A stretch of 64,000 nucleotides of DNA. Origin: Bacteroidota bacterium. GTDB taxonomy: Bacteria > Bacteroidota > Bacteroidia > Bacteroidales > VadinHA17. The notes beneath the pieces were generated by a model. It searched no databases. It saw only the letters and a list, made by a program, of their open reading frames with translations, and had not been told where the DNA came from. Positions 8,904-62,188 of this stretch are shown piece after piece. The position numbers were made by a program, and so were the translations under genes. Within the stretch, counting starts at the first letter, position 1. Every line of letters begins with the position of its first letter. The stretch spans positions 16,029-80,028 of the forward strand of contig DRFJ01000053.1 in assembly GCA_011050615.1 (NCBI GenBank). Direction: 5' to 3'.

Positions 8904-9059
8904 GGTGTCATTAGTTGATCAAAAATATCAAAATAGGGGACATAAAAAAAATATTTTGAACCAAATAAAAACAGGATAAGCCTACGGGGAGTAAGCCCAT
9001 CCTGAACAACAAAACCTAAAACTTGATAGTAGAAGAAACTATCTGGTTAACATTTGCAT

Positions 9060-23419: not shown

Positions 23420-23590
23420 ACATTGTCTTAGTCCAGCCCTATATATTAGGGTATAATCGTCCTTTTTCGTAAATTGCCTGCTGAGCATTTATTGGTCATA
23501 ATTATGGCAATACTTTGTACCATGATGCAGCTCAGAAACTTATCCTCGAAGATATACTGAACCAACTTATACAAAAACAAATTATTATCT

Positions 23591-24859: not shown

Positions 24860-24870
24860 TATCAGGCATC

Positions 24871-27459
24871 ATGAAAAAAATATTTATCATATCATTTATT
24901 ATAATTGGTTCAGTACTGGGATATGCACAGGATCAGCGCACTACAGAAACAAAAGTAGCCGATCTTCTTGCCAGGATGCCTGTTGATAATCTTGTTGATC
25001 TGAGGATGAAGATGGAGGAGATGACTAAACTTGGGCCGGAAGGCAGGCAACAGATTATTAACATGATAGTACCTCCCGGAAACGGAAATGACACAAGGGC
25101 GAGGTTTGCCATTGAGAGCTACTCCCGGTATCTTTCGGAATACGGCCATGAGCCGGAAAAATATGCCTGGGAATCAGAATGTATTGAGGCTGTTTATGCA
25201 TCGGGATATACCATGGTAAGATCTTTCTTTCTTTCACAGCTCCAATATATGGGAACGGAACGCTCAGTAGAATTTGCTTCGGGTTTCCTGACCGATGCCG
25301 ACATGTGTGAGCCTGCTGTGGCTGTCATTGCTTCCTGTAACTCGCCAAAAAAAGAAGATATTCTTGCCATGAGCCTGCAGATAAAGTCCCTGCCCTGCCC
25401 GGCATCGGTGATGAATGAGCTTGCGGGGATGAAGTCCGATAAGGCTACAACTGAATATATTTTCTGGTATCTCAGGGGCGACGCCGGAATTAAATCGTCA
25501 GCTCTTAATGCCATGGCTGAAAGTGCGCACGAGAATGTATATGCAACTCTGAATGCTGCTGCAGCTGATGCTTCATATGGATGGGATGCAACGGGGGCTA
25601 CCGCTGCCCTGGTGCAGTATGCAAGAAATGTGGGTGATAAAGGAGATGAGAGGACAATGGAGAAAATATGCAGGGAAATTTTCAGCAAGGCTACCGTCCA
25701 ATATAAAACAGCTGCCCTGGAAGCAATGGTTCACTATAAGGGTTACGAAGCTATTGACTACCTTCTTTCGGGATTCGTGTCGGGTGAACTGGAATACCGA
25801 CAAGCCATCCTTAACCTGACAGGGGATATTCCCGGCAAAGCAGCCACAAGGAAATGGATAACCCTGATTAGTGTTGTGGATGAAGAACGTAAAGCCGAAA
25901 TTATAAACATGCTGGGAGAAAGAGGCGATGAACTTGCTGTTTCCACCATAAAAGCCAGTCTTTTCTGCCCCTCTGCCCAGGTTCGCACTGCTTCAGCTAT
26001 GGCACTGGCAAAGTTGCAGGGGAGGGACTCCGTCAGTGAGCTTATAGATTATATAAGATCATATGAAACCGTTGATGACCAGGTAGCGGGTTACCGGGCC
26101 CTTCTGACGGTGCTCGATAGCAAAAAAAGGGACCTCATAGCCGGGGCTCTTGAAGGATCGGGTAATAATACAAAAGCCACCATGTTAATATTACTGGCAT
26201 CAGGTGGAGAGAACAGGTTTTTCAATACTATTATGCAGTATACGTCATCCTTTGACCCAAAACTCAGGACAGTTGCCTTTTCAGAATTGAAAAGCCTGGC
26301 AGGCCCTGATGACCAGGAACTGCTTATTGATCTTATGCTCAATGTATCAGATGAAACCGAGAAAATAGAAGTTCAGATGGCTCTTGTAACTGCAGCAAAT
26401 CAGATCAACAATAAGGAGGAGAGAGCTTCTGTGCTGATTGAAGCAATGAAGAAATCTGATCAAAAGGCCGGATTTATACCTGTTCTTGCTGCCATTGGCG
26501 GTCAGAAAGCCCTTAGTGCTGTTTATGAGGAATTTGAGAAAGGCAATGCGGAAATGCGGGCAGTAACATATGATGCCCTGGCCAGTTGGATCGATTTTAG
26601 TTCTTCCGAAGTATTGTATGATATATGCGCTTCCGGGAATAAGAACTATTCAGAAAAAGCTTTTTATGACTATATAGATAAGGTATATACTGCGCCTGTG
26701 CCTGATAAACAAAAGTTAAGCTTACTCCGGAGAATTGCTCCCTACGCATTCAGGGAGGATCAAAAAACCATCCTTGAGAAAAGGCTGGATTCGGTTAAAG
26801 AATCTATATTAAGTGAAGAGAAAGAGAAGGAGACTGAGAAGGAAACAGTTACCGGCTTTGTTCTCACGGGGCAGGAGAAAAAGGATGGATTCGTGGTCCT
26901 GTTTGACGGGATAACACTTGATAACTGGATTGGGGACAAGGAAACATACGTCGTGGAGGATGGCAATATTGTTGTCAGGCCTGAAAGAGGCAGCGGAGGA
27001 AATCTTTTTACCAGTGATGAATACAGCAATTTTATCTTAAGATTTGAGTTTCAGCTGACCCCGGGAGCAAATAACGGGCTCGGCATCCGTGCCCCTCTTA
27101 CAGGAGATGCTGCCTATGTGGGTATGGAATTGCAAATTATCGATAACACAGCTGAAATTTACTCTAAGCTTCAAGCCTACCAGTACCATGGTTCGGTATA
27201 CGGTGTAATCCCGGCAAAAAAAGGTTTCCTCAAACCTTTGGGTGAATGGAATGAACAGGAAGTAATTGTGGACGGAACAGCCATCAGGGTAATCCTCAAC
27301 GGAACTGTTATAGTTGATGGAGATATAAGCGAAGCAATAAAACATGGAACCATGGATAATCATGACCATCCCGGATTAAAACGCAAAAGTGGACATATTG
27401 GATTTCTTGGGCACGGTTCAGTTGTAAAGTTCAGAAACATAAGGCTTAAGGAACTGTAG
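24871..27459 (+). CDS. secreted HEAT-repeat protein with C-terminal DUF1080 (3-keto-disaccharide hydrolase-like) domain
   Basis: Start taken at MKKIFIISF (signal peptide). A long alpha-helical repeat region is followed by a C-terminal ~200 aa reading [17 protein letters not shown]...[22 protein letters not shown], which is typical of DUF1080. Confidence 0.65.
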
Positions 27460-27607
27460 TTATTTTAATATAAAGAAATTTATACACTTGTCACCTGTAT
27501 TGCTTGATTGATCAAAACTTTGCCGGGATATTTTGTATTTAGTAATAATAGTGGCAAATTTATATCAAGTTTAAGGGAATCAGGCATTTTTTAAAGCTGA
27601 CTGAAAA

Positions 27608-27964
27608 ATGAAAATTCTGATTTGTGAAGATAACAAACTGGCATCACTGGTAATCTCCACGATGTTGAAAAGAAGGGACTATACTGTTGAGATAGCATCT
27701 GACGGCAATGAAGCCCTGGAAAAGATTACAACGGGAAATCCCGACCTGGTGATTGCAGATATTCATCTTCCATATCATAGTGGGCTGGAACTGGTCAGGT
27801 ATCTGCGGAATGAAATGGAGAGCAAGATCCCTGTTATTATTGTGTCTGCTTTTAGTGACCCGCATGTGCAGGAAAATGCCTGGGAACTGGGAATAAGTGA
27901 TTATTTTGTCAAACCTATTGATAATGAGGCGCTTATTGCCAAAGTCGATTCCCTTTTGAAATAA
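27608..27964 (+). CDS. single-domain response regulator (REC only)
   Basis: 118 aa. Acidic pair ED (7-8), phosphoacceptor in VIADIHLP, IIVSA, and the conserved Lys in FVKP. Confidence 0.85.
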   Translation: MKILICEDNKLASLVISTMLKRRDYTVEIASDGNEALEKITTGNPDLVIADIHLPYHSGLELVRYLRNEMESKIPVIIVSAFSDPHVQENAWELGISDYFVKPIDNEALIAKVDSLLK

Positions 27965-27970
27965 CAGGCT

Positions 27971-29134
27971 ATGAAATATTTGTACATTACTACCGCCCTT
28001 CTGGCAATTTTAATTCTACCGGGCATCACTCAATATGCATCTGCACAGGTAATCCCTGATAATCCGGAAGCAGCTTATGATACCATCCGTACAATAGCAT
28101 ATGAAGGAAGGCTGGAAGAGGCGGAAGCCTTGGCCCGCGACCTGCTCAGGGAGAATCCCGGGTACGGTGATGCCGCAGTTCTTCTGGCAAGAATAATTGC
28201 CTGGCAGGAGAGGTATGAAGATGCCATTGAAATGCTGGATTCACTTCTTGCGGTACAACCGGAACATGAGGATGCAATTGTTGCGAGGGAAACGATAAGC
28301 GAATGGTTTAAGCCAGGTTCAGATAATGAGCGTATGTTACCTGATTCATCTTCAGTAAAATCAGGGGATGTTACCCGGGCGAATGATATTCCTGTCGATA
28401 CCATTGCAAGGGGTGTTGATATTTTTCTGGGATATAATTTTGACACTTTTAAGCAACCTTATTCCAGATTCTGGCAAATCTTCCGGCTTGGTGCCAGATA
28501 TGAAACACCGGTGGGCCCGATACTGGGAACGGTTAATTTCGGTAATCTGCACGCTGCTACTGACCCGCGGATAGTGGAAACAGGCATACAGGTGCAGGGA
28601 GAGTTCTGGCCTGAAATAAGCAATAGGACTTATGCCTGGCTGGCATATGCTTACAGCCCGTTCAAATATTTTCCAAAACACAGGGCTGCAGCAGAATACT
28701 GGCTAAATCTGAATAAGGGGTGGGCAGTTTCAGCAGGAGCATCATATTTCTATTTTGACAGGAATATTATTATACCTGCTCTTTCTGCTGAGAAATATGC
28801 GGGTAAGTACTGGTTTTCAGCCAGGACCTATGTTCACCTGAAGGAGGCAGGGACATCGGCATCAGTTTTCCTGAGTGCCAGAAGATACAGTAATGATACT
28901 GATTATATCCAGCTTACTGCAGGAGCCGGTACGGCACCTGATGAACCATGGGACCTCGCTGTTGACCTCGACAGACAGAAAGCAGCAGCTTTCAAACTCA
29001 TTGTGAATAAGGAATTAAGTGAAAGCTTTACAGTCAAGGTGGGTGCAGGATATTCCCGTGAGCAATACCTGGATGAGCAACAACGTAACAGGTTCGAAGG
29101 ATTCTTAAATATTTATTTTAGCCCACAGAAGTAA
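27971..29134 (+). CDS. TPR + YaiO-family outer-membrane beta-barrel protein
   Basis: Signal peptide and an N-terminal TPR-like helical region. The C-terminal ~250 aa has alternating beta-strand pattern and ends in an aromatic residue (NIYFSPQK), like YaiO-type barrels. Confidence 0.6.
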   Translation: MKYLYITTALLAILILPGITQYASAQVIPDNPEAAYDTIRTIAYEGRLEEAEALARDLLRENPGYGDAAVLLARIIAWQERYEDAIEMLDSLLAVQPEHEDAIVARETISEWFKPGSDNERMLPDSSSVKSGDVTRANDIPVDTIARGVDIFLGYNFDTFKQPYSRFWQIFRLGARYETPVGPILGTVNFGNLHAATDPRIVETGIQVQGEFWPEISNRTYAWLAYAYSPFKYFPKHRAAAEYWLNLNKGWAVSAGASYFYFDRNIIIPALSAEKYAGKYWFSARTYVHLKEAGTSASVFLSARRYSNDTDYIQLTAGAGTAPDEPWDLAVDLDRQKAAAFKLIVNKELSESFTVKVGAGYSREQYLDEQQRNRFEGFLNIYFSPQK

Positions 29135-29136
29135 TT

Positions 29137-30933
29137 ATGAAAATACCGGCTTATCTGATAATGCTGATAATATTAATGCTCCCGGGCAATCATGAGCTAA
29201 AAGCCGGTGGTTTGCTCTCTGGTAAATTGACATACAAGGTTATATCAGAAAACCATCCCGGAGAAAACACTCCAAATACACTTTTTCACAGTTTAACTGA
29301 ACAACGCATTATCATACCCCGGAGAGGTTATGCAATTCAACTCGGAGCATTTAAGAATTATAAAAATGCTGAAAAGTTGAAGAATTCAATTGAGGAAGTC
29401 CTGCCCTGGATGTTTGAAACTAAAAACCTGGAGATTGTTATTGAAGATGAATTTTATAAGGTAAGGCTATTTACATTTAAGGACAGGGAAGAGGTTAATG
29501 AAGCCCTAACCGTGCTGGCCAGTCATGAAATAATTGACTATCAACTAGTCTGGTTAAGAACTGATCAGCAACAGGTCCTCTTAAAGGAGAGTCAGGAGTC
29601 AGCAAATGTCTCAGCAGGGAGAACAGTCAGGGCTTCCCGCCGGGATCTGAGTCCGGCCAATCCCCCGGATACAATTTCAGGAATAGATCAATCATTAGTG
29701 AGAGAAATTATTGACAGGATCCTGTATTCTTTATATGGTGATTCGGTAAAGATACCCTTTCAGAGGGATGAGGAAATAATATTTCCGGGTTTCAGGTCTA
29801 TGATAAGCGGAGATGCAATTTCTGGAAGTGAGGGTGTTTTTGATGCACATAACCCGTGGCTTAAGAGATTCGACTACTTTGGCAAATCGATTACCCTGGT
29901 GGCCTTCCTTATCGTTATAATTATCCTGTCAACAGGCACCATGGTGGTTTTACTGGTTATTATTTTGCTGAACAGGCGCAGGATGGAAAGGAGGGAAAAA
30001 CTTAACCAGTACCTTCTTGAGAATTACCAGCAACTTATTATTAGTTACCTCTATGGTGAGGCTGATCTGGAAATGTTCAGGGAAATTGCTTCAAACAGAT
30101 ACCGAAGGCAGGTTTTGATTGATCAGATGAAGGATGTTGCCGTAAACCTGAAAGGTGATTCATGGGGGAAGCTCAGGTCATTATACCTCGAACTGGGACT
30201 TGATTATGACTCTGTATGCAGGGCTAATGCCAGGAGGTGGCATATAAAGATAAAAGGTTTCCGGGAGCTTGCCTTTATGAATATCAAGGATGCTAATAAT
30301 GAAATATACAGGTCCCTGAACTCCCATAATGAAATACTGAGGATGGAGGCACAGATAGCTCTCGTGAGGCTCAGTGAGGATAAACCGTTTGAATTTTTGT
30401 ACCATCTTAAAAGACCTTTCTCCTTATGGGAACAGATATCCTTGCATGAACTGATAGTCCAGCATTCTATCGAAGTACCTCTGTTTAACCAGTGGATAGA
30501 TTCACCCAATGACACGGTGGTTATGTTTGCACTAAGGATGATAAGGGAATTCCGGCAAAATGAAACAGAAGATGATGTAAGAAGGGTTCTGGGACATCCC
30601 AATGAGGATGTACGGGGACTGGTCATAAAGGTAGCCGGTGATTTGAAGATGAAAAGCACACTGGGAGTAATGAAACGTATGTATAAAAACGAGGATTACA
30701 ATAATTCCCTGGAGATACTCAGGTCAATGGGTAAAATGCCCGACGAGTCATACCTTGGTTTCCTTAAGCTGGTGCTGGACAAGGAGGATGACGTGCAATT
30801 GCAGATTGAGGCAACCAAGGCAATTGAAAACATGGGTGAACCGGGTATAAAGGAACTTGTGAAACTCATGAAATCTGAATATAAGAATTATAATATTATT
30901 ATCAGGCATGTGCTCGATCGTAGGATTTATTAA
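29137..30933 (+). CDS. SPOR domain - single TM - HEAT-repeat protein
   Basis: N-terminal signal/anchor. SPOR-like block GYAIQLGAFKNYKNAEKLKNSIE...FYKVRLFTFKDREEVNEAL. TM segment ITLVAFLIVIIILSTGTMVVLLVIILL, followed by a cytoplasmic helical-repeat region of about 320 aa. Confidence 0.55.
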   Translation: MKIPAYLIMLIILMLPGNHELKAGGLLSGKLTYKVISENHPGENTPNTLFHSLTEQRIIIPRRGYAIQLGAFKNYKNAEKLKNSIEEVLPWMFETKNLEIVIEDEFYKVRLFTFKDREEVNEALTVLASHEIIDYQLVWLRTDQQQVLLKESQESANVSAGRTVRASRRDLSPANPPDTISGIDQSLVREIIDRILYSLYGDSVKIPFQRDEEIIFPGFRSMISGDAISGSEGVFDAHNPWLKRFDYFGKSITLVAFLIVIIILSTGTMVVLLVIILLNRRRMERREKLNQYLLENYQQLIISYLYGEADLEMFREIASNRYRRQVLIDQMKDVAVNLKGDSWGKLRSLYLELGLDYDSVCRANARRWHIKIKGFRELAFMNIKDANNEIYRSLNSHNEILRMEAQIALVRLSEDKPFEFLYHLKRPFSLWEQISLHELIVQHSIEVPLFNQWIDSPNDTVVMFALRMIREFRQNETEDDVRRVLGHPNEDVRGLVIKVAGDLKMKSTLGVMKRMYKNEDYNNSLEILRSMGKMPDESYLGFLKLVLDKEDDVQLQIEATKAIENMGEPGIKELVKLMKSEYKNYNIIIRHVLDRRIY

Positions 30934-30942
30934 TAAAATATA

Positions 30943-32382
30943 ATGAATAGTTTTTTCACAAATATTATTTTTATAATAACCCTTTTTATTATAGGGTCTT
31001 ACCTCCTTCTTGGCATTTTTTCTGCTCTCAGGCTGAGAAAATATCTGCGTAAAAATAGCTTTGTTAATTATAACTCTCTGGTTAGCACTCCTTTAAGTCC
31101 CAGAGTCTCGGTAATTGCCCCGGCTTACAATGAGAGCCAGACAATTATTGATAATGTACGCACCCTGCTATCACTCTATTATAATAATTTTGAGGTAATA
31201 ATAGTAAATGACGGTTCTACGGATGATACCTTTAAAAAAATAAAGGATGCCTATAAGCTTGTAAAGGTTAACTATTATTTTGATTACCGTATACCCTGTG
31301 AGAGGATAAGAGGAGTATACAGGTCAGAAGATCCTTCATTCAACAGGTTAACTGTTATAGATAAAAAGAATGGAGGCAAGGCTGACTCCCTGAATGCAGG
31401 TGTTAATATCTCCAGGAGCCCCTTGGTGGTGAGCATTGATGCAGATTCAATTATTGAACCCGGTTCATTACTTAAGCTTATTAAGCCCTTCCTTGAGATA
31501 AAAGACAGGAAGGTAATTGGTACAGGTGGAGTAATAAGAATAGTAAATTCATGTGATGTGGAGAAGGGTTTTATACGAAGCATTCATATTCCTGAAAAGA
31601 TCCTGCCCCGTCTGCAGGTACTTGAATATACCAGGGCCTTTCTTCTTGGTCGTATGGCATGGAGTCATCTCGACGGGCTCATGCTGATATCGGGAGCCAT
31701 GGGTATGTTTGACAGGGAAACACTTGTAGCGGCAGGAGGATATAGTCTGGATACTGTGGGTGAGGATATGGAGCTTGTTTTAAGAATGAGGCGTTATATG
31801 GCTGAAAAGGAAATCGATTACGAGGTAACTTATATTCCTGATCCGCTGTGCTGGACCGAAGTTCCCTCTGATATTAAGTCCCTGAAACGTCAGCGCACGC
31901 GTTGGACAAGGGGACTGGTTGAATCACTCGCAAAACATAAAAAAATATTCTTGCGGCGTAAATATGGCAGGCTGGGACTTCTGGGCTACCCATACTGGTT
32001 ATTTTTCGAATGGATGGCTCCACTCATTGCTTTCGGAGGTATGGCATACACACTTATACTTGCAATACTGGGGATGCTTAACTGGCCTTTTTTCCTCTTG
32101 CTCTTCCTATTCATTTATTCTTTTGCCGTAAGCCTTTCAACCTGGTCGGTTTTGTTTGAAGAAATTACTTTTCACAAGTATGAAAGAAGACGTGATGTCA
32201 TACGCCTCATAATGGTTGCTTTTTTTGAACCTTTTTTCTATCCCGTTCATGCTACCTTTGCGGTAATAGGCAATATTCAGTACCTGCTGGGGAAACAGGG
32301 ATGGGGAGGCGGAGCCGACAGGCGCGGTTTTGAAATGGAGAATAACAGGCGCAAAAAATTCAATAATAATAATCAGGTATAA
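30943..32382 (+). CDS. processive family-2 glycosyltransferase (PgaC/IcaA/NodC-like polysaccharide synthase)
   Basis: N-terminal TM, then VIAPAYNES, NDGSTDDT, DAD in SIDADS, GEDMEL, and QRTRWTRG (the QxxRW motif). C-terminal TM bundle. No PilZ-like tail. Confidence 0.8.
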   Translation: MNSFFTNIIFIITLFIIGSYLLLGIFSALRLRKYLRKNSFVNYNSLVSTPLSPRVSVIAPAYNESQTIIDNVRTLLSLYYNNFEVIIVNDGSTDDTFKKIKDAYKLVKVNYYFDYRIPCERIRGVYRSEDPSFNRLTVIDKKNGGKADSLNAGVNISRSPLVVSIDADSIIEPGSLLKLIKPFLEIKDRKVIGTGGVIRIVNSCDVEKGFIRSIHIPEKILPRLQVLEYTRAFLLGRMAWSHLDGLMLISGAMGMFDRETLVAAGGYSLDTVGEDMELVLRMRRYMAEKEIDYEVTYIPDPLCWTEVPSDIKSLKRQRTRWTRGLVESLAKHKKIFLRRKYGRLGLLGYPYWLFFEWMAPLIAFGGMAYTLILAILGMLNWPFFLLLFLFIYSFAVSLSTWSVLFEEITFHKYERRRDVIRLIMVAFFEPFFYPVHATFAVIGNIQYLLGKQGWGGGADRRGFEMENNRRKKFNNNNQV

Positions 32383-35083
32383 GCGAAAGTCCGTCCCTTA
32401 CTATACTGAGAGAAGCTTTTTCCCTCTCCGTGGTTGAAGGTACAACCAGCCATCCGGGCCATGTAAAACGCGACAGGGTATTTATGTTTTCACCATTTAA
32501 AACTACACTCAGGGCAATACCGTCACTTTCACTTTCTTCAATTTCCCAGTGGTAGCCACCATCCCATGATGAAGCCCCGTCAATAACAGACATCCTTGTG
32601 GGGTCGAAAAAATGTAAGAGCGTCCACGGCAATTCGATGATGATCTGGTTTTCATTCCAGCTCATTCCCTCACCGAATGCAGGATCAGGGGCAGAGCCAT
32701 ATCCGGTCAGTATATTCCCCGGTACAGTTTCTGAAAAGGTGTAGCCATTATTTATCCATTCTACCCTTTTCCATGCTGCTCCATCACTTACCACAGATCT
32801 GAACTTCTGTATTTCCGGATCGGTAAAGTTAAATCTTGGTGTCAATCCCTTCATATCATATGCTTGAGTAACATACAGGGTTGAAGTATCCCTGCCCCTT
32901 ATACTCTTGAGGAGAAATTCTGCCCTGTTGTTAATCGTAAATTCTCCCGGAAGAACCGATTCCCCGATATCAGAACGGTAAGTGTCAATGGCAACCATTA
33001 TTGAGTCACCTGCGGGTACCTGGTCTCCGGTATCAATGGTTATTTTCAATACCTGGTTGTTACCGCTGGCAGTGATTGAAACCTGACTGTCCGGCTCGCC
33101 ATCAATAGTATATTCATGTTCGGGAAAATCTCTTTCCTGCTCATATCCAATGAGACCAAAATTTTGCTCGGGTGATGCCAGATTGTGCCAGAGCTGACGC
33201 GTATAAATAAATTCATCTCCGGATTTGAATCCGGCAGCTTCAAGATACTGGACTATCCATGTTCTTTTGAACCATTCGTCCATCCATGCAAACATGAAAC
33301 CTCCTCCGCAACCGGCGTTCAATATGTTCCTCATCAATCTTATATTCATCTCACCCTGCTCGGTCTCCGTGTTATCGCCATGGTTCATTCCGCTGAATGA
33401 ATTATGGGCATTCCCCTTTGATGAGGGAACGCCAAATTCTGCAATTACGAGAGGCATATCACCATAATAATTACGAAGATTAATGATATATCCATAATAG
33501 CTGTTGGGACCAATATCATCATAGTAAGTCTGGTATTCAGGTTCATCGCTTACAAAATCGGGATAATAGGGATAGGCATGGTAGCTGGCAAACAGAAGTT
33601 TTTCATTTCCCTGTTCAGTAATAACTTTTATATCGATCGATTCAACATCTTCATCAGTATATATCTCTGTAGGGTGTGTAAGAGGATCAAGTGTGGGCCA
33701 GCTTGATATGCTTACAGGCCTGCCGGATGAATATTCTGTCTGTTCATATTGTATGGTCTCATCAAGCATCCTTGCAAAGAAAACCTCTGAAGGGTCTGCA
33801 TCTGTAACTGAGAAACGGTATCCAATGTAATCCTTTACAGTACTATTAAAAGTATTGGTTGAATCAATTTCCTGGGGAGACACCTCTCTTCCTATTATAT
33901 AAGCTGCCACCCAGGGGGAAATATCAGTACTGTAATCTCCGTAAGCCTTTCCCGGCCTGAAAGGCAGGCTTTTGTTGCCGTGGACACAATCTATAAGCTC
34001 ATGAATGCTTTCCCTGAACTGCTGTTCTCTCCTGAACAGGTCGTATTCATCCGCTGAGCTTCCGTCATTAATTTCATCGAGCCATATTCCCTGGAAGAGG
34101 AAGAGTGGGTCGGAAGGATTCTCAGCGTTGTATTCGGCAAGCTTTTCATAAAAAACCGGAGGATGAAGTGTATATACCCTGATTGCATTGAAGCCTGTTT
34201 CGGCCATCATTCTGATCCACCTCTCATAGGTTTCTCCAGGAATTGCGTATGCAATCTCGCCCGGGAAGTAGCCTGGAGGTGATGAACCAAGGTTTATTCC
34301 CTTAAGGATAATAGGAAGGTAGCCCGTACCATCCCTTTTCCCTATATGGTCACCAGATATGGCGTATGGCATGTTATCCAGTGGCATGAGTGTGAAATTA
34401 ATTACCGTATCTGTCGTGAAAGTTATTCCCGTATGGCGAAGGCTATGATAACCTTCTGCGCTAACAGTTGTTAAAGCCTGAAGGATCCCCGGTATGGTTG
34501 CTCCCATGTTTTCATACCCTGGAATATTAAATGATTCAATATATGCCAGCCCGCTTCCCGCATTTTTATTCCCGGTTATAACTATACGGCCTGACACTGT
34601 TTTACCACCATATGTAAGGGCATAGATATAAAACCCGGCTCCGGTTCCGGAACCGGCTACCCTGGAACCGTCCCAGACCACCCGGTAGCTGCCGGCATCC
34701 AGGTTGCTGAATTCTTTTTCAAATACTTTTGCACCGGAAAGGCTATACACAGAGAAGCTGACATCTCCCGGTGACGGGACGGATATCGGGATCCTTACAA
34801 TGCCGTCAGAAGGATTGGGAAAGGGGGGCCAGGTCCTGAATCCTGCTTCCTCACCCTGGTACGTGCCATGTATAGTAATCGAATAATAGCCATTAGTACC
34901 TGAGCGGGCAGCAAAGTGTTTTGAATATATTTCATAGTCAACAAGGGCATTCTCTATCCCTCTTCCCCGGGAATTGGTTACCCTGCCGGTGATGGTGATA
35001 TCTTCTCCCCGGACCGATGGTAACAGCATGAAAAAAAGAAGACTGAAAAAAGTCAGATGCCTGGTGGTAATTATATTTCTCAT
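32360..35083 (-). CDS. secreted multidomain putative glycoside hydrolase (clan GH-A-like TIM barrel)
   Basis: Start taken at MRNIITTRHLTFF (signal peptide). The N-terminus has a CarboxypepD_reg-like module (ITITGRVTNSRG) and an FlgD/T9SS-like Ig module (PNPSDGIVRI...YSLSGAKV...GSYRVVWDG). The core contains NAIRVYTLHP, IIGREV and VIAEFGVPS, reminiscent of (beta/alpha)8 hydrolases. Confidence 0.5.
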   Translation of the reverse strand: MRNIITTRHLTFFSLLFFMLLPSVRGEDITITGRVTNSRGRGIENALVDYEIYSKHFAARSGTNGYYSITIHGTYQGEEAGFRTWPPFPNPSDGIVRIPISVPSPGDVSFSVYSLSGAKVFEKEFSNLDAGSYRVVWDGSRVAGSGTGAGFYIYALTYGGKTVSGRIVITGNKNAGSGLAYIESFNIPGYENMGATIPGILQALTTVSAEGYHSLRHTGITFTTDTVINFTLMPLDNMPYAISGDHIGKRDGTGYLPIILKGINLGSSPPGYFPGEIAYAIPGETYERWIRMMAETGFNAIRVYTLHPPVFYEKLAEYNAENPSDPLFLFQGIWLDEINDGSSADEYDLFRREQQFRESIHELIDCVHGNKSLPFRPGKAYGDYSTDISPWVAAYIIGREVSPQEIDSTNTFNSTVKDYIGYRFSVTDADPSEVFFARMLDETIQYEQTEYSSGRPVSISSWPTLDPLTHPTEIYTDEDVESIDIKVITEQGNEKLLFASYHAYPYYPDFVSDEPEYQTYYDDIGPNSYYGYIINLRNYYGDMPLVIAEFGVPSSKGNAHNSFSGMNHGDNTETEQGEMNIRLMRNILNAGCGGGFMFAWMDEWFKRTWIVQYLEAAGFKSGDEFIYTRQLWHNLASPEQNFGLIGYEQERDFPEHEYTIDGEPDSQVSITASGNNQVLKITIDTGDQVPAGDSIMVAIDTYRSDIGESVLPGEFTINNRAEFLLKSIRGRDTSTLYVTQAYDMKGLTPRFNFTDPEIQKFRSVVSDGAAWKRVEWINNGYTFSETVPGNILTGYGSAPDPAFGEGMSWNENQIIIELPWTLLHFFDPTRMSVIDGASSWDGGYHWEIEESESDGIALSVVLNGENINTLSRFTWPGWLVVPSTTEREKASLSIVRDGLSLIPDYYY

Positions 35084-35253
35084 GTTTGCCTTTATGAAGT
35101 AAGCACCCGGACCCTGGTCCAAAGATAGTATATTATGATTCTTTCTCAAAAACGGGCCTCTTTAAAAATTTGTATGTTTTATGGAATTTTCCCTGAACCT
35201 TCCTTCTTTGAATATTATAGCTTAATTGGTATATTCGTTGCAAACTCTTTTGA

Positions 35254-36486
35254 ATGGCCCTGAACTATATCTGGATAGCTTTTTTCATTCTTGCCTTTAT
35301 TTTTGCCCTCGGGCAGCTGATCTTTACGGGCAATACACAGGTCTTTTCTGATATGGTAAACGAAACCTTTGCCAGTGCAAAAACAGGATTCGAAATTTCA
35401 CTGGGATTGACAGGTGTTCTGACATTATGGATGGGTTTAATGAAGATAGGGGAAAAAGGAGGAATGGTAAAGATGCTTTCAAAAATTATTGGGCCATTTT
35501 TCAGCCGTATATTTCCTGAACTACCCAGGGAGCATCCTGCCTACGGGTCTATAATTATGAACCTGGCTGCAAATATGCTGGGGCTTGATAATGCGGCTAC
35601 ACCGATGGGACTGAAAGCCATGGGTGAGATGCAGGAGGTTAACAGTAAGAAGGATACAGCCTCCAATTCCCAGATCATGTTCCTTGTGCTGAATACTTCA
35701 GGTTTAACTATCATACCGGTAAGTATTATGGTTTTCAGGGCACAGCTTGGAGCTGCAAATCCTGCCGATATATTTATTCCCATCCTTCTGGCTACTTTTT
35801 TTTCAACAATAGCCGGGCTGGTGTCAGTGTCAGTAATGCAAAAAATTAACTTGTTCGACAGGGTTATCCTGGCTTACCTGGGTGGAATGACTGCATTCAT
35901 AGTAGCTGTTATTTGGTATTTCAGCTCATTGCCAAAAGAAGATATCACCAGGATCTCAACCTTCGCAGCCAATTTTATACTTTTTGTCGTAATAATCGCA
36001 TTTATTGTCCTGGGACTGGTAAAAAAAATTAATGTGTATGAAACATTTATTGAAGGAGCCAAAGACGGTTTTAAGATAGCTGTAAGAATTATACCTTTTC
36101 TTGTTGCCATACTCGTGGCAATAGGTGTATTCAGGGCTTCCGGGGCAATGGATATGCTGATAAACGGACTAAAATTTCTTCTTGGCAGCATAGGTATGGA
36201 TACCAGTTTTACCGGTGCCCTGCCTACCGCACTGATGAAACCTCTAAGTGGAGCAGGCGCCAGGGGAATGATGGTTGATGCCATGACTACCTATGGAGCT
36301 GATTCTTTTGTTGGAAGACTGGCATCTACGGTACAGGGCGCAACCGATACCACTTTTTACATAATTGCAGTTTATTTTGGATCGGTAGGAATAAAAAATA
36401 CGAGGTATGCAGTAAGCTGCGGGCTGATAGCTGATTTTGCAGGGATAATAGCGGCCATATTTATAGCTTATTTGTTTTTTGCTTAA
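35254..36486 (+). CDS. nucleoside-recognition domain membrane protein (fused SpmA/SpmB-like)
   Basis: 410 aa polytopic membrane protein. Two Gate-like halves with GLDNAATPMG and SGAGARGMM. Confidence 0.6.
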   Translation: MALNYIWIAFFILAFIFALGQLIFTGNTQVFSDMVNETFASAKTGFEISLGLTGVLTLWMGLMKIGEKGGMVKMLSKIIGPFFSRIFPELPREHPAYGSIIMNLAANMLGLDNAATPMGLKAMGEMQEVNSKKDTASNSQIMFLVLNTSGLTIIPVSIMVFRAQLGAANPADIFIPILLATFFSTIAGLVSVSVMQKINLFDRVILAYLGGMTAFIVAVIWYFSSLPKEDITRISTFAANFILFVVIIAFIVLGLVKKINVYETFIEGAKDGFKIAVRIIPFLVAILVAIGVFRASGAMDMLINGLKFLLGSIGMDTSFTGALPTALMKPLSGAGARGMMVDAMTTYGADSFVGRLASTVQGATDTTFYIIAVYFGSVGIKNTRYAVSCGLIADFAGIIAAIFIAYLFFA

Positions 36487-36598
36487 TGAATGTTAGATAT
36501 TATCAGGAAGGAGCCTGGAAGCCTGAACCGGCAAATAATCAGAGCGCAGTTTGTGCAAAAAACACAGAATCAGTGATATAGAATAAAATTTCTTAGTA

Positions 36599-37501
36599 AT
36601 GAATACAGAGTACAGGAATTTTTTCTCTATGGGAACCAGGCTGGATGCCGTATTCATAAATATTGGGGATGAAAAGGCTGATATACTGGCCACCCGCCTC
36701 AGCAATGAACTGGATAAACTCGAAAATATTTTGAGCAATTACAAAGCTGACAGTGAACTGTCTATACTCAACAGAACTGCTTATGGAAATGATATTGATG
36801 TAAGCCCCTGCCTCTTTGATACTATCACTTTATGTATTGATTATTATGGGATGACAAATGGTGTTTTTGACCCTGGAAAGGGTAAACTGACGGGATCTGA
36901 TTCCAGGAAGAAAAGAAGAAAAGAATCTGAAATATATTTTCTGATTGAATCATCAGGAATAGGCCTGGTGGAGCTTAATAAGAGCCGTAAAACAGTCAGA
37001 TATCATGGTGAGAATGTGAAAATAGACTCCGGTGGCTTTGGTAAGGGACTGGCAATCAAAAGAGTAAAGGAAATACTTGTATCTGAAGGAATAAATAATG
37101 CACTCATCAGTTTCGGTGAAAGTTCGGTACTTGCTCTCGGAGCACATCCTCATGGTAACCACTGGCCAATTGCTGTCACTGATATTTATAAAAAGCAATC
37201 AGTCGCCAGATTGGCCGGGCTCACCAACAAGAGCATCTCAACTTCGGGAACTGGTTTTGTGAATGATAAGGGTATATTTACACCCTCTTATAATGTTTTT
37301 GATCCGCGAACAGGAGAATCTGTAGATGAACCACGCACGGTATCAGTTATTTCCGATGATCCCCTGGAGGCTGAAATTCTGTCAACTTCCCTTTTGATTG
37401 ACTTTGATTGTCTGGCAGGTGGCTTTGACAGATCAGGTAAAGAAGCCTTTGCCGTAATTTATGATCTAAGGAAGAATTTTGTCGTCACGGAAATTTTTTA
37501 A
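36599..37501 (+). CDS. ApbE-family FAD:protein FMN transferase (no signal peptide visible)
   Basis: 300 aa. FSMGTRLDAVF near the N-terminus and DSGGFGKGLA. It begins directly with the catalytic core, without a lipobox. Confidence 0.7.
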   Translation: MNTEYRNFFSMGTRLDAVFINIGDEKADILATRLSNELDKLENILSNYKADSELSILNRTAYGNDIDVSPCLFDTITLCIDYYGMTNGVFDPGKGKLTGSDSRKKRRKESEIYFLIESSGIGLVELNKSRKTVRYHGENVKIDSGGFGKGLAIKRVKEILVSEGINNALISFGESSVLALGAHPHGNHWPIAVTDIYKKQSVARLAGLTNKSISTSGTGFVNDKGIFTPSYNVFDPRTGESVDEPRTVSVISDDPLEAEILSTSLLIDFDCLAGGFDRSGKEAFAVIYDLRKNFVVTEIF

Positions 37502-37547: not shown

Positions 37548-38804
37548 ATGACTTACAAACAATCCAGACGGATATTTCTTCAGAAGACAGCTCTTATTAC
37601 CGGGGGACTTTTCCTGGGCTCCCATTTACCCGATCTGAGAACTCTGGCAGCGGACCAGGGGGAAACAACTGAAGAGGTGAAGCTGGGACTGATAGGCAGC
37701 GGCTCACGCGGCCAGTATTTAATGGATCATCTGAACCTGATTCCGGGGATTGAGGTAGTGGCCGTTTGTGACAATTACCAACCCAATCTTACTATGGGAG
37801 TTCAAAAGACTGGTGGTAAGGCAGAGGCTTTCACTGACTACAGGAAGCTCCTTGAAAGAAGAGATATTGACGGAGTTATTATCGCTACCCCTTTACACCT
37901 GCATTCGCTGATGTCTGTTGATGCTCTGCAGGCAGGGCTGCATGTTTTTTGTGAAAAGGCAATGGCCAAAACCCCCCGTGAGTGCCTTGATATGTATAAA
38001 ACACAGCTTCAAACAGGAAAGATTTTGCTTATCGGTCACCAGAGGATGTTTAACCCGAGGTATCTGAAAGCCTTTGAGATGATAAACAGTGGACAGCTTG
38101 GCGACATAACACAGATACGGGCTTACTGGCACAGAAATAACGACTGGAGAAGAGCAGTGCCTGAACCAGGCCTCGAAAGAAAGATAAACTGGAGACTGTA
38201 CTGGGAATATTCGGAGGGACTTATGACAGAGCTGGGAAGTCATCAGATACAGGTGGCAAATTTTATTAAAAAGGATTTTCCCCGCAGGGTGGCCGGTACG
38301 GGTAGTATAAATTACTGGCACGATGGAAGGGAAGTATTTGATAATGTGAACCTGGTATATGAATACCCCGACGGATCAACACTAATCTATGATTCAATGA
38401 TAAGCAATGCTCACTACGGCCTGGAAGAACAGGTTATGGGCCCAAAAGGCACTATGGAACTTGAAACGGGAAAAATGTATTCAGAAAATCCTCCCCCGGC
38501 ACCTGGCATATTGCAACTGCTTAATAATATTGAACATAAGATCTTTGATCCCCTCCCTCTCGGTGGTAAAAGCTGGGTGCCTGAAACAGCCCGGGAAGCG
38601 AAGGGTGAGTATATCTATGAAGTGGACCTTGAAGACGATGGCACTGCACTCGAAATGGAAGGCTTTGCACAGATGATAAGGGAAAACCGTCATAGCGATA
38701 TCTTACTCAGGGAAGCATATTATGGCGCCATAGCTGCCTTGCTGGGTAATGAGGCCATAAAGAAAGGCGAAATGATAACATTCCCTGAGGAATATATTTT
38801 ATAA
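37548..38804 (+). CDS. TAT-exported Gfo/Idh/MocA family oxidoreductase
   Basis: Twin-arginine leader SRRIFLQKTALITGGLF. GLIGSGSRG Rossmann motif. CEKAM. Confidence 0.8.
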   Translation: MTYKQSRRIFLQKTALITGGLFLGSHLPDLRTLAADQGETTEEVKLGLIGSGSRGQYLMDHLNLIPGIEVVAVCDNYQPNLTMGVQKTGGKAEAFTDYRKLLERRDIDGVIIATPLHLHSLMSVDALQAGLHVFCEKAMAKTPRECLDMYKTQLQTGKILLIGHQRMFNPRYLKAFEMINSGQLGDITQIRAYWHRNNDWRRAVPEPGLERKINWRLYWEYSEGLMTELGSHQIQVANFIKKDFPRRVAGTGSINYWHDGREVFDNVNLVYEYPDGSTLIYDSMISNAHYGLEEQVMGPKGTMELETGKMYSENPPPAPGILQLLNNIEHKIFDPLPLGGKSWVPETAREAKGEYIYEVDLEDDGTALEMEGFAQMIRENRHSDILLREAYYGAIAALLGNEAIKKGEMITFPEEYIL

Positions 38805-38815
38805 AGACTGTAATT

Positions 38816-39067
38816 ATGAAAGACCTCGTGATAAAAGGAAGCTGGATAAGAAGAGAACTTATTATACTGGCAATTATATTCTTATTTGCAGTAGTGGTTA
38901 ATGTTATAGGTATAATCAAACACGATACAGGGTGGATTGAGCTTCTCAGCCAGCTCCATGTGGTGTTTATATTAATGTTTATATTATATGCACTGCTCTG
39001 GTTGCTCAGGTTAATAATTTACCTGGTGACATTTCCCTTCAGAAACAAAAAAAACAGTAAGACATGA
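38816..39067 (+). CDS. small two-TM membrane protein
   Basis: 83 aa with two hydrophobic helices. Tightly packed between the neighbouring genes, with a 4-nt overlap to the next gene. Confidence 0.4.
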   Translation: MKDLVIKGSWIRRELIILAIIFLFAVVVNVIGIIKHDTGWIELLSQLHVVFILMFILYALLWLLRLIIYLVTFPFRNKKNSKT

Positions 39068-62187: not shown

Positions 62188-62188
62188 G

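Follow-up and report, generated by a model that had tools for sequence, protein, structure and literature searches.

What do the five closely packed genes of this Bacteroidales locus make, and how is their product exported and controlled? The genes lie in a window of 64,000 nucleotides (the whole stretch of DNA that was analysed), and most likely they form a machine that makes a sugar polymer and exports it across both membranes. We find it probable that the locus is a synthase-dependent module for exopolysaccharide synthesis and export, with new accessory parts and gated by a phosphorelay. Here, we infer the polymer, the contacts between the proteins and the regulatory step.

Organization of the locus and its conservation

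Four genes follow each other on the plus strand in the order REC, TPR-YaiO, SPOR-TM-HEAT and GT2, and a fifth open reading frame converges on them from the minus strand:

27460..27607 (+), AT-rich intergenic region, presumed operon promoter as read from the sequence
27608..27964 (+), stand-alone CheY-like receiver (REC) of 118 amino acids (aa) without output domain (Pfam Response_reg)
27971..29134 (+), outer-membrane protein of 387 aa with signal peptide, TPR-like helices, linker and YaiO-type beta-barrel (PF19413, TIGR04390, TPR_19)
29137..30933 (+), bitopic inner-membrane protein of 598 aa with signal peptide, periplasmic SPOR domain, one TM helix and cytoplasmic HEAT solenoid
30943..32382 (+), membrane-embedded GT2 of 479 aa, a processive synthase of PgaC/BcsA type (Pfam GT2 families, motifs)
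32360..35083 (-), convergent exported protein, 907 aa long if started at the ATG at 35083, which is followed by a signal peptide

The intergenic spacers in the four-gene operon are 6, 2 and 9 nt, which reproduces the 2-9 nt of the preliminary description, and in orthologues the start and stop codons of operon genes overlap. No terminator-like sites were found on the plus strand within the operon. In the window, the GT2 gene and the convergent gene share 23 nt at their 3' ends. The presumed promoter region has no Rfam match, and a sigma-70 scan of it is uninformative in Bacteroidota. Neither sugar-nucleotide genes nor modification genes are linked to the module.

The window was compared with about 80 related loci, all from uncultured Bacteroidales and all from MAGs or metagenomes; no cultured host was found among the loci examined. 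The REC and YaiO genes lie upstream of the HEAT gene in 74 of 74 testable loci, GT2 lies downstream of it in 72 of 72, and the convergent gene accompanies them in 66 of 67; the genes that flank the module are of two different sets. The co-occurrence of YaiO barrel, HEAT protein and GT2, proposed earlier as a check, is thus seen in essentially all testable loci. The arrangement is far beyond chance, being found again in nearly all the related loci that were compared, and the comparative data make the functional linkage of the genes much stronger. Compared with the window, the median identity is 75% for GT2, 68.5% for the HEAT domain (81 loci) and 45-50% for REC (about 50%), YaiO and the convergent protein. 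By these values, the HEAT domain is almost as constrained as the synthase.

The HEAT family comprises 510 clusters at E<=1e-30, and the core order REC-TPR/YaiO-HEAT-GT2 is kept in six of seven distant Bacteroidota loci; the seventh (L093) is a contig of 4.9 kb with only HEAT and GT2 and a cut open reading frame upstream. At L090, the GT2 is 50% identical to that of the window.

The synthase

The GT2 matches the Pfam families Glycos_transf_2, Glyco_tranf_2_3 and Glyco_trans_2_3, and the motifs reported for it earlier are all in place (DAD166, GEDMEL273 and QRTRW317), with hydrophobic segments at the N- and C-terminal ends. Residues 52-379 align with BcsA, and the identity to E. coli PgaC is 25% over 356 aa, covering the catalytic and membrane region (E 6e-28). 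From its sequence, the protein is identified as an inner-membrane family-2 glycosyltransferase with the D, DxD, (T)ED and QxxRW motifs and the membrane flanks of PgaC/BcsA-type synthases.

From this similarity one may ask if the locus is an ordinary PNAG locus of the Pga/Ica type, where the GT2 makes poly-beta-1,6-GlcNAc and the remaining proteins are divergent equivalents of PgaA, PgaB and PgaD. In NCBIfam, the GT2 does match PgaC_IcaA best (E 3.7e-40), and the IMG and NCBI pipelines name its homologues 'PgaC' or 'PNAG synthase'. However, the score with the PgaC equivalog model (TIGR03937) is 138 bits, far below the cut-off of 422, and the PgaA model gives 16 bits, with a cut-off of 366.65. 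Furthermore, the module has no CE4 deacetylase, no GH153 (PgaB) and no PgaD-like small two-TM protein, while its barrel is of the 14-strand YaiO type and its hydrolase has a GH-A fold. The profile searches that the preliminary description had named therefore lead us to reject Pga membership and to regard an ordinary PNAG locus as improbable, although the polymer could still contain GlcNAc.

The outer-membrane protein

The preliminary description assigned TPR-like helices and a YaiO barrel to the second gene. Scores of 120.5 bits for YaiO PF19413 (cut-off 23.9), 90.1 bits for TIGR04390 in NCBIfam (cut-off 32) and 36.5 bits for TPR_19 agree with this, as does the AF2 model (mean pLDDT 82.7), in which two parts are seen:

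28064..28309 (+), five TPR-like helices, aa 32-113, predicted to be periplasmic (AF2 model, TPR Pfam matches)
28415..29119 (+), 14-strand beta-barrel, aa 149-383 (AF2 model)

The helices, at residues 32-44, 48-61, 66-78, 82-95 and 100-113, are modelled with a pLDDT of about 90. The best target-normalised TM-scores of the model are to the 14-strand porin OmpG (0.58-0.63); another 14-strand porin, CymA, has 0.42-0.48, and there are further matches, at E about 1e-7, to the exporters BcsC (9b8a, 6tzk) and PelBC (9h80). The known polysaccharide porins PgaA, BcsC, PelB and AlgE have barrels of 16-18 strands. The smaller number of strands in the YaiO barrel counts against its being an export pore.

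These likenesses bear on another alternative, where the GT2, like NodC, OpgH or GtrB, makes an oligosaccharide, a periplasmic glucan or a lipid-linked glycan, and the barrel serves uptake or is an unrelated porin. GT2s of the QxxRW type do include NodC, which makes short oligomers and the model of which matches the GT2 with E 6.7e-13, and the barrel is most like the sugar-uptake porins OmpG and CymA. But BcsC, PgaA and PelB, which are export porins, are likewise built as a TPR domain fused to a barrel, and the model matches BcsC and PelBC. In addition, the barrel gene is co-oriented with and strictly linked to the synthase gene in 74/74 loci and in those distant cassettes that reach far enough upstream, and an exported, glycanase-like partner goes along with them. 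We therefore give this alternative little credence. Export of a polymer agrees with the logic of synthase-dependent systems drawn in the preliminary description, which is supported by the PgaC/BcsA-type GT2, by a TPR-barrel protein matching BcsC and PelBC and by the exported protein with GH-A fold. In such a machine, GT2 would polymerise a common UDP-sugar and guide the chain across the inner membrane in a channel of its own, and the YaiO protein would be the exit pore in the outer membrane, as a smaller counterpart of PgaA, BcsC or PelB. Our best guess is that the polymer is a beta-linked glycan.

The SPOR-TM-HEAT protein

The third protein, described before as bitopic, matches SPOR with 35.8 bits (Pfam cut-off 21) and HEAT_2 with 48.7 bits (Pfam cut-off 27.7), and its PDB profile matches are the SPOR domain of CwlC (1x60) and alphaRep HEAT proteins. 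A single TM segment divides it:

29320..29520 (+), SPOR domain, aa 62-128 (Pfam, PDB profile match)
29908..29964 (+), TM helix, aa 258-276, with a conserved juxtamembrane segment; the only TM segment (Kyte-Doolittle 3.07)
29965..30930 (+), cytoplasmic HEAT-repeat domain, aa 277-598, better conserved than any other non-catalytic part of the module

Of 79 orthologues, 66 carry the SPOR core motif and 13 do not; it is absent from short forms of 380-446 aa and also from several distant relatives. In contrast, P240, W241, Y247, S251, L258, I259, I262, M269, L273, I276, N279 and R280 are invariant in 30 sequences, the helix is followed by NRRRMERREK, in line with the positive-inside rule, and the C-terminus ...HVLDRRI(Y/F) is invariant. 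By this comparison the SPOR domain is dispensable, and the TM helix and the HEAT domain are the conserved part. The protein may thus be an obligatory partner of the synthase, with its TM helix packed on the synthase channel in the manner of PgaD and the BcsB anchor, and with the HEAT solenoid as a docking surface for regulation. When present, SPOR would anchor the machine to peptidoglycan.

The receiver and the proposed control of synthesis

The head of the operon is, as first described, a stand-alone receiver (Response_reg 93.8 bits, residues 3-113) without output domain. All phospho-acceptor residues are invariant: E7, D8, D51, K102 and P103 are the same in 76 orthologues, each of which has S or T at position 80. 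Profile searches of the five proteins and of those encoded next to them found no PilZ, GGDEF, EAL, GIL or MshEN domains, in agreement with the c-di-GMP module's reported absence. An early census of Bacteroidetes genomes found many histidine kinases and zero diguanylate cyclases (PMC1183210).

As for the kinase of REC, which the preliminary description proposed to identify, no kinase or Hpt gene adjoins the operon of the window, but a lead comes from the six distant cassettes, where the core is preceded by REC-Hpt, by split REC and Hpt, or by a hybrid histidine kinase that carries Hpt; REC-Hpt or the hybrid kinase sits directly upstream of the stand-alone REC. The module is apparently controlled by a phosphorylation relay and not by c-di-GMP. 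REC would be the final acceptor of a His-Asp-His-Asp relay and would bind the HEAT/GT2 complex to switch synthesis on or off post-translationally, filling the place held by c-di-GMP receptors in proteobacterial systems.

Stand-alone receivers are often phosphate sinks or connectors. Possibly, then, although we doubt it, REC is a sink or feeds a transcription factor elsewhere, while the HEAT protein is a scaffold or localisation factor acting through SPOR. This would fit with the conservation of REC, which is only 50%, and with the nil distance correlation between REC and GT2, in an analysis that gave no method-robust chain of interactions. It fits poorly with the position of REC, which heads the operon in every locus, near or distant, with enough upstream sequence and follows Hpt-bearing genes wherever these are present, and with its lack of a DNA-binding domain. 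Moreover, the constraint on the HEAT domain is much above what a passive scaffold needs, and SPOR is dispensable. A relay that acts on the synthase complex is accordingly the reading that we prefer.

The convergent protein

The convergent open reading frame extends to a TTG at 35149 (32360-35149, minus strand, 929 aa). The protein was previously described as a secreted, GH-like protein of 908 aa; export, through Sec, and a GH-A-type fold stand, with 907 aa from the ATG, while the GH label is invisible to sequence profiles. The layout is a signal peptide, N-terminal beta-sandwich domains, a (beta/alpha)8 barrel and C-terminal beta-sandwich domains:

34331..34999 (-), N-terminal beta-sandwich domains, aa 29-251 (TIGR04183 and weak CarboxypepD_reg and FlgD_ig)
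33224..34324 (-), (beta/alpha)8 barrel like those of clan GH-A, aa 254-620 (AF2 model), putatively catalytic

For TIGR04183, the score is 33.3 bits (cut-off 23), and the match covers residues 110-191 in the 929-aa frame. This domain resembles T9SS C-terminal sorting and FlgD-Ig domains, yet it is near the N-terminus.

For residues ~250-907 there are no sequence matches in Pfam, NCBIfam or PDB, and no profile assigns a GH family. The AF2 model (mean pLDDT 79.3, pTM 0.78) has GH2 beta-glucuronidases (E 1e-15) and GH157 (TMt 0.44) as top Foldseek matches, with low global TM-scores of 0.2-0.27 normalised to the query. Its barrel strands are 260-264, 300-303, 328-333, 392-397, 457-460, 499-504, 545-550 and 594-597, and invariant residues lie on strands 1, 2, 4, 6, 7 and 8: N264/G266, R302, E400 (IGRE, after strand 4), H502/Y504, E549 (AEFG, strand 7) and W600. 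By the clan GH-A pattern, E400 and E549 are candidate catalytic glutamates, but the residue before the acid/base Glu is usually Asn in that clan and an invariant Arg here, which counts against a hydrolase. The hydrolase call is supported at the level of the modelled fold. The protein could act in the periplasm as a glycanase, trimming the polymer or clearing it away in the manner of BcsZ, the C-terminal part of PgaB (PgaB-C) or PelA.

Is the gene instead a conserved neighbour with no role in the system? It lies on the opposite strand, it is replaced at one locus (L027), the sole exception among the close loci, by a gene for a protein with PKD and a right-handed beta-helix, and it is absent from the distant loci, where a different protein of ~390 aa takes the position. 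The right-handed beta-helix is another carbohydrate-active fold. Missing from the distant cassettes, the GH-like gene is not a universal part of the system, and by this comparison it is specific to the clade of the window. Against a neighbour without role stand its presence in 66/67 loci over two flank contexts and the fact that in half of the loci its 3' end overlaps GT2. The L027 replacement and the ~390-aa protein are found in this convergent slot as well, a pattern which suggests that the slot is a functional one and that different enzymes fill it. A mere neighbour is therefore unlikely.

Comparison with known systems

The locus shares with Pga a PgaC-like GT2 but has neither PgaB nor PgaD; with Bcs it shares a BcsA-type GT2 and the match of the YaiO model to BcsC, and with Pel the match of that model to PelBC. 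The preliminary description is right that a YaiO porin gene lies near the GT2 gene yaiP in E. coli: in MG1655, yaiO, yaiX (a pseudogene for an acyltransferase, interrupted by IS2), yaiP (GT2) and yaiS (deacetylase) lie side by side.

Gene organisation of the locus

The ORF listing of the window returned exactly the genes of the preliminary description, four on the forward strand and one convergent with them:

27608-27964, +, 118-aa protein, stand-alone receiver (REC)
27971-29134, +, 387-aa protein, TPR-YaiO outer-membrane protein
29137-30933, +, 598-aa protein, bitopic SPOR-TM-HEAT protein (HEAT protein)
30943-32382, +, 479-aa protein, membrane GT2
32360-35149, -, convergent ORF, 929 aa when counted from TTG, GH-like protein

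In the convergent ORF, an ATG at 35083 stands before a typical signal peptide and gives a protein of 907 aa, close to the 908 aa stated earlier. The domain assignments made from the sequence (REC, TPR and YaiO barrel, SPOR and HEAT, membrane GT2) were each matched by Pfam or NCBIfam. The claim that a PilZ- or GGDEF-type c-di-GMP module is missing was also borne out, in that searches with the same two libraries found no PilZ, GGDEF, EAL, GIL or MshEN domain in the cassette proteins or their neighbours.

The spacers among the four forward-strand genes are 6, 2 and 9 nt, and the orthologous YaiO and HEAT genes share 4 nt. A terminator scan found no terminator-like site on the forward strand within the operon; this is the only use made of the scan, the sigma-70 promoter part of which is inapplicable to Bacteroidota. 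No Rfam family matched window 23000-37000. At their 3' ends, GT2 gene and convergent gene have 23 nt in common (window 32360-32382). Such an overlap is found in 34 of 69 related loci, where the gap between the two genes spans -217 to +284 nt, and from this follows that convergent transcripts would collide or pair where the genes overlap.

The flanks of the window locus are unrelated to the cassette and encode GFO/IDH/MocA oxidoreductases, 3-keto-disaccharide hydrolase-domain proteins, a nucleoside-recognition 'Gate' protein and ApbE. Oxidoreductase genes together with 3-keto-disaccharide-hydrolase-domain genes lie on either side of the locus (23591-27459 and 37548-40386), and one of the encoded hydrolase-domain proteins, of 870 aa, also carries HEAT_2 repeats. 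For the upstream pair, synteny with the cassette holds in roughly half of the related loci.

Conservation of the cassette

Close homologues of the HEAT protein number more than 1,100, and all those with an organism name come from metagenome-assembled genomes (MAGs). Looking up the names attached to homologues yielded only MAG labels (MAG Bacteroidales, Bacteroidota or Bacteroidetes), generic product names or blanks. When one genome per species was scanned, 275 genomes were found to encode it. The 80 loci listed from these all belong to uncultured Bacteroidales or Bacteroidota MAGs, with no cultured host among them, and several MAGs with the cassette are labelled anaerobic bioreactor (AnMBR) or biofilm in their record titles.

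To quantify linkage, ORFs were called in the listed loci and matched to the window proteins, counting only loci with enough DNA. In 74 of 74 loci the REC and YaiO genes lie upstream of the HEAT gene and share its strand, the GT2 gene comes after it in 72 of 72, and a large convergent protein is encoded at its position in 66 of 67; the comparison of genomes for joint occurrence of YaiO barrel, SPOR-HEAT protein and GT2, proposed in the preliminary description, therefore turns out in its favour. The flanks vary. About half of the loci carry the neighbours seen in the window, while in the others a DUF5916/CBM9 protein is encoded upstream, and downstream either a GNAT acetyltransferase or a SiaC-family protein. 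From these differing flanks follows that the five genes are a conserved unit and not a by-product of general synteny.

In 17 related loci a divergent gene for a SiaC-family regulatory phosphoprotein (PF09345) adjoins the start of the GH-like gene; a GNAT acetyltransferase gene fills this place in 24 other loci, and the window has neither. The sole related locus without the GH-like gene, L027, has in the convergent slot a protein with PKD and right-handed beta-helix domains, which is a different carbohydrate-active fold in the same position; an AraC-type regulator gene comes after it. Examples of both, all from related loci, are:

L039:13745-14254, +, SiaC-family gene (PF09345)
L003:14239-14622, +, SiaC-family gene (PF09345)
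L027:10995-13058, -, PKD and right-handed beta-helix protein, 687 aa, same convergent position

Over the same genomes, median identity to the window protein is 75% for the GT2 and 68.5% for the cytoplasmic domain of the HEAT protein, and lower for REC and the convergent protein (50% each), the YaiO barrel (48%) and the YaiO TPR region (45%). Parts, gene order, linkage and relative constraint of the module are in this way directly observed. Partial correlations of pairwise distances, calculated in mirror-tree style for the five cassette proteins in 60 loci, gave a chain REC-HEAT-GT2-GHlike-YaiO in the Pearson version, but the rank-based version reordered the pairs, so that the chain is not robust to method. 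Stable in both versions are only HEAT-GT2 (0.35), GT2-GHlike (0.46 and 0.36) and a nil value for REC-GT2, and these are not taken as evidence for contact.

The family extends further. A profile search with the HEAT alignment among 1.84 billion representative proteins gave 1,809 matches, of which 510 have E<=1e-30, and the HEAT family therefore reaches well beyond the close clade. From its distant part seven loci with a G+C content of 29 to 49% were sampled, and the core order REC (~120 aa), TPR-YaiO (~420 aa), HEAT, GT2 is retained in six of them (L087, L089-L092, L094); L093, the remaining one, is represented by a 4.9-kb contig with HEAT and GT2 genes and a cut ORF upstream. In the distant locus L090, identity to the window counterpart is 50% for the GT2 and 30% for the HEAT domain. 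The module is, in sum, well defined, widespread in one phylum and uncharacterised.

The synthase and its putative membrane partner

The GT2 has the features of a processive inner-membrane enzyme, i.e., the D, DxD, (T)ED and QxxRW motifs with flanking transmembrane segments. As the preliminary description had it, the motifs are DAD166, GEDMEL273 and QRTRW317, and hydrophobic segments occupy both ends (residues 1-29 and 346-445); Pfam matches are Glyco_tranf_2_3 and Glyco_trans_2_3. Its closest characterised relative is E. coli PgaC, with 25% identity over 356 residues that include the first C-terminal membrane segments (E 6e-28). The alignment with BcsA covers residues 52-379, and identity to E. 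coli YaiP is 28% over the catalytic half. NfrB was dropped as a relative (E 0.004).

The kinship with PgaC raises the possibility that the locus is a pathway for poly-beta-1,6-GlcNAc (PNAG), which the preliminary description had named among the findings that would speak against it. The best NCBIfam model of the GT2 is indeed PgaC_IcaA (TIGR03937), but the score of 138.1 bits lies under the equivalog cut-off of 422.3, which rules out PgaC orthology; annotation pipelines call homologues 'PgaC' all the same. Further, neither a PgaB-type CE4 deacetylase/GH153 protein nor a small PgaD subunit was found in or beside the cassette. Because there is no deacetylase and the equivalog test failed, PNAG is not the default product. 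Judged by its sequence, the GT2 is PgaC-like in its working, yet no PgaC orthologue.

The HEAT protein matches SPOR and HEAT_2 in Pfam and has one strong transmembrane segment (residues 258-276). Its SPOR domain (PF05036) scores 35.8 against a cut-off of 21 and also matches the CwlC SPOR domain, 1x60, by profile; 66 of 79 orthologues retain the SPOR core motif, which the short forms are missing. In an alignment of 30 homologues the periplasmic part is variable or missing, and its N-terminus is essentially unalignable. From the juxtamembrane segment onwards conservation is extreme, including residues of the transmembrane helix and the C-terminus ...HVLDRRI(Y/F). Such strong constraint on the transmembrane helix and the cytoplasmic solenoid is the pattern that would be expected of an obligatory synthase partner. 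The invariant end of the HEAT protein lies at window 30907-30930 (+). A conserved tail motif of the GT2, G-W-G...R-(R/K)-G-F-E, lies at window 32293-32340 (+) and is kept in the 50%-identical GT2 of L090. These two cytoplasmic motifs are candidate regulatory or contact elements.

The outer-membrane protein

The YaiO protein passes both curated family cut-offs with a wide margin (PF19413, 120.5 against 23.9; TIGR04390, 90.1 against 32), and its N-terminal part matches TPR_19. The PgaA model TIGR03939 gives 16 bits against a cut-off of 366.65, in a match that spans the TPR region only. Family membership comes from the profile, since the BLASTP match to E. coli YaiO is not significant (E 0.069). 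In the AlphaFold model (pLDDT 82.7), five TPR-like helices are followed by a disordered linker and a 14-strand barrel. Profile and model together thus identify an outer-membrane barrel with periplasmic TPR, in agreement with the TPR-like helices and YaiO-type barrel read from the sequence earlier. When the model was submitted to Foldseek, the best-fitting barrel was the 14-strand porin OmpG (TMt 0.58-0.63), with CymA at 0.42-0.48, and there were matches also to BcsC and PelBC (E about 1e-7). As modelled, the protein appears to be a miniature of the TPR-plus-porin architecture of known exporters. The YaiO barrel is smaller than known polysaccharide porins, and none of the 65 papers searched that mention YaiO ties it to polysaccharide export.

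The convergent protein

The convergent protein had been called secreted and GH-like. A signal peptide is present, and the modelled fold shows a GH-A-type barrel, but the sequence places it in no GH family: no Pfam, NCBIfam, PDB sequence or profile match assigns the barrel to a described one. Since no sequence profile recognises the barrel, it represents a sequence-orphan family. Searches of PDB by sequence and profile matched only an N-terminal Ig-like domain (FlgD, PorU), and as they gave no GH family, it is the fold that supplies the glycoside hydrolase call.

The AF2 model (pLDDT 79.3, pTM 0.78) has N-terminal beta-sandwich domains, a barrel of eight strand-helix units, i.e., the (beta/alpha)8 fold of clan GH-A, and C-terminal beta-sandwiches. 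The top Foldseek matches are GH2 beta-glucuronidases (E 1e-15) and GH157 (TMt 0.44), with low global TM-scores. Residues invariant in 47 homologues are distributed over the barrel as in clan GH-A: G-I-N-L-G on strand 1, R302 on strand 2, E400 directly after strand 4, H502 and Y504 on strand 6, E549 (AEFG) on strand 7 and W600 after strand 8. Their positions in the model make E400 and E549 candidate catalytic residues. The residue before the putative acid/base E400 is an invariant Arg, R399, and not the usual Asn (window 33884-33889, -), a motif that could point to an unusual C2 substituent or to a charged substrate.

An N-terminal domain (window 34331-34999, -) matches the T9SS type A sorting-domain model TIGR04183 with 33 bits, and some database records therefore read 'T9SS type A sorting domain-containing protein'. 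Its place away from the C-terminus makes a role as sorting signal unlikely, and the name of these homologues is probably misleading. Most simply, the protein is periplasmic.

The receiver and its possible phosphoryl source

The receiver (118 aa) is spanned end to end by Response_reg and has no output domain. E7, D8, D51, K102 and P103 do not vary, and all 76 orthologues have S or T at position 80, so that the acidic pair, phospho-acceptor Asp, Thr/Ser and Lys of a CheY-like stand-alone receiver are all kept. By these residues the protein is predicted to be a competent phospho-acceptor.

The question of which kinase phosphorylates it, posed in the preliminary description, receives a partial answer from the distant loci, where phosphorelay genes adjoin the receiver, but no such gene stands beside the window operon. 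A REC-Hpt fusion directly precedes the receiver in L087 (Hpt motif read in the sequence) and L091 (Pfam Hpt, E 5e-5), split REC and Hpt genes do so in L092, and in L090 the place is taken by an 809-aa hybrid kinase, REC-PAS-HisKA-HATPase-REC-Hpt. In L089 and L094 it is a REC protein (252 and 266 aa) that resembles the REC-Hpt fusions in length. Because Hpt-bearing genes directly precede the receiver in distant cassettes, we infer that a multistep phosphorelay has the receiver as its last acceptor. None of the distant loci encodes the GH-like protein. In four of them the slot convergent with the GT2 holds a ~390-aa protein with an N-terminal hydrophobic segment and no Pfam match (38.6-53% mutual identity). 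In L090 and L087 one extra gene each separates the YaiO gene from the HEAT gene. The coordinates are as follows:

L090:2177-4606, +, hybrid kinase ending in Hpt, precedes receiver
L087:5380-6135, +, REC-Hpt fusion, precedes receiver
L091:5552-6319, +, REC-Hpt fusion, precedes receiver
L092:5394-6163, +, split REC and Hpt, precede receiver
L089:11703-12887, -, ~390-aa protein in place of GH-like protein
L090:10621-11784, -, ~390-aa protein in place of GH-like protein
L091:11492-12658, -, ~390-aa protein in place of GH-like protein
L092:11184-12362, -, ~390-aa protein in place of GH-like protein
L090:6612-7979, +, CotH-family kinase (PF08757, E 5.7e-60), inserted gene
L087:7831-8868, +, 345-aa protein, no Pfam match, inserted gene

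A search of the window found no Hpt, hybrid kinase, ~390-aa family or SiaC gene near the operon. The window does encode a REC-HisKA-HATPase kinase 30 kb from the locus (62180-63319, +) and a 7TMR-DISM histidine kinase 20 kb from it (6822-8918, -), neither with a demonstrated link to the cassette.

Proposed mechanism and significance

The module is probably a synthase-dependent exopolysaccharide system. In such a system the GT2 would polymerise a common nucleotide sugar and translocate the chain, the transmembrane helix of the HEAT protein would complement the synthase in the membrane, and its solenoid would take regulatory input. Phospho-REC would bind the cytoplasmic HEAT/GT2 assembly and switch synthesis; that phosphorylated REC gates the synthase through HEAT is put forward tentatively. 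The chain would cross the periplasm along the TPR helices and exit via the YaiO barrel, the GH-A-like enzyme would trim or clear periplasmic polymer, and SPOR, where present, would anchor the machine to peptidoglycan. A beta-linked glycan is favoured as the polymer because of the GH-A fold and the PgaC/BcsA-type synthase.

An early census of Bacteroidetes genomes found many histidine kinases and no diguanylate cyclases (PMC1183210), which makes a phosphorelay a reasonable replacement for c-di-GMP control. These elements can be joined in one reading, in which the cassette is a distinct, phylum-wide Bacteroidota synthase class, a His-Asp phosphorelay ends in a receiver that docks on the HEAT solenoid and gates the synthase directly, and YaiO 14-strand barrels are general exit pores. 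As a whole this reading is rather doubtful. If true, it would provide a c-di-GMP-independent post-translational switch, reveal YaiO-type 14-strand barrels as so far unrecognised general polysaccharide exit pores, and give the cryptic yaiO-yaiP-yaiS locus of E. coli a function.

If the mechanism holds, control of a polysaccharide synthase can be wired directly to two-component phosphorelays, the YaiO barrel family, including the E. coli protein, obtains its first functional context, the sequence-orphan GH-A-like enzyme family gains a likely substrate, and uncultured Bacteroidales a defined matrix-polymer locus. The system is experimentally approachable: a compact module of four or five genes with hundreds of natural variants is suited to heterologous reconstitution and co-evolution analysis. 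The interpretation in the preliminary description is supported and extended, all support being computational.

Comparison with known systems

The characterised synthase-dependent systems (cellulose, PNAG, alginate, Pel, Nfr) are mostly proteobacterial. No description of the cassette was found in the literature searched on YaiO, on Bacteroidetes synthase-dependent systems, on SPOR and HEAT with glycosyltransferase, or on Bacteroidetes PgaC. A systematic survey of synthase-dependent operons has no mention of Bacteroidetes, HEAT or YaiO (PMC7112194).

Consider first PgaABCD of E. coli. The GT2 motif set and topology are alike, the synthase has a small accessory membrane partner in both systems (here a predicted one), and both have an outer-membrane protein that combines periplasmic TPR with a C-terminal barrel, as well as a periplasmic polymer-processing enzyme (here putative, by fold). 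In the window, however, the place of PgaD is taken by a transmembrane and HEAT protein and that of the CE4/GH153 protein PgaB by a GH-A-fold protein, the porin is of YaiO type with 14 strands, ~5 helices and 387 aa, whereas PgaA has 807 aa (annotated gene length), and a receiver heads the operon in place of c-di-GMP control. BcsA-BcsB-BcsZ-BcsC likewise combines a processive GT2 channel, a single-TM partner that the synthase requires (for the HEAT protein a prediction), a periplasmic glycanase (here putative) and a TPR and barrel exporter, and the relation is visible in the alignment of the GT2 with BcsA and in the match of the YaiO model to BcsC structures. Here the differences are that the window synthase lacks a PilZ domain, that the bulk of the HEAT partner is cytoplasmic while that of BcsB is periplasmic, that the hydrolase has a GH-A fold instead of being GH8, and that TPR and barrel are far smaller.

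The closest genomic parallel for the porin is provided by the cryptic yaiO-yaiX-yaiP-yaiS locus of E. coli, the adjacency of yaiO and the GT2 gene yaiP given in the preliminary description being confirmed by the gene order. Both barrels belong to PF19413 and stand beside a membrane GT2, and product and function are uncharacterised in both cases. Common ground is limited to the barrel family and the related GT2: E. coli YaiO has 257 aa and no TPR region, and its locus, while encoding an acyltransferase and a deacetylase, lacks a HEAT protein, a receiver and a GH-like gene.

NfrA-NfrB-YbcH of E. coli, by the MG1655 annotation, also unites a synthase-type GT2, a TPR outer-membrane protein and an auxiliary protein; NfrB, however, has no significant similarity to the window GT2 and is annotated as c-di-GMP-activated, and NfrA, of 990 aa, matches the window TPR region weakly (E 0.038). 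Pel (PelA-G) shares the TPR and barrel exporter, PelB, with a PelBC structure matched by the YaiO model, and the periplasmic hydrolase, PelA; it also possesses accessory proteins of the inner membrane whose cytoplasmic parts contain helical repeats (PelE). Its polymerase is a cytosolic GT4 and not a membrane GT2, control by c-di-GMP goes via PelD, and no sequence relation between Pel and the window module was found.

The synthase-dependent systems compared here are switched by c-di-GMP. Post-translational activation in such systems goes through a c-di-GMP receptor (PilZ, PelD, the PgaCD interface or MshEN); in the cassette proteins no PilZ, GGDEF, EAL, GIL or MshEN match was found, and the operon has a stand-alone receiver in its place. 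In its working the module resembles Pga, Bcs, Pel and Nfr, and it is a member of none of them: it keeps their overall logic and replaces every accessory part.
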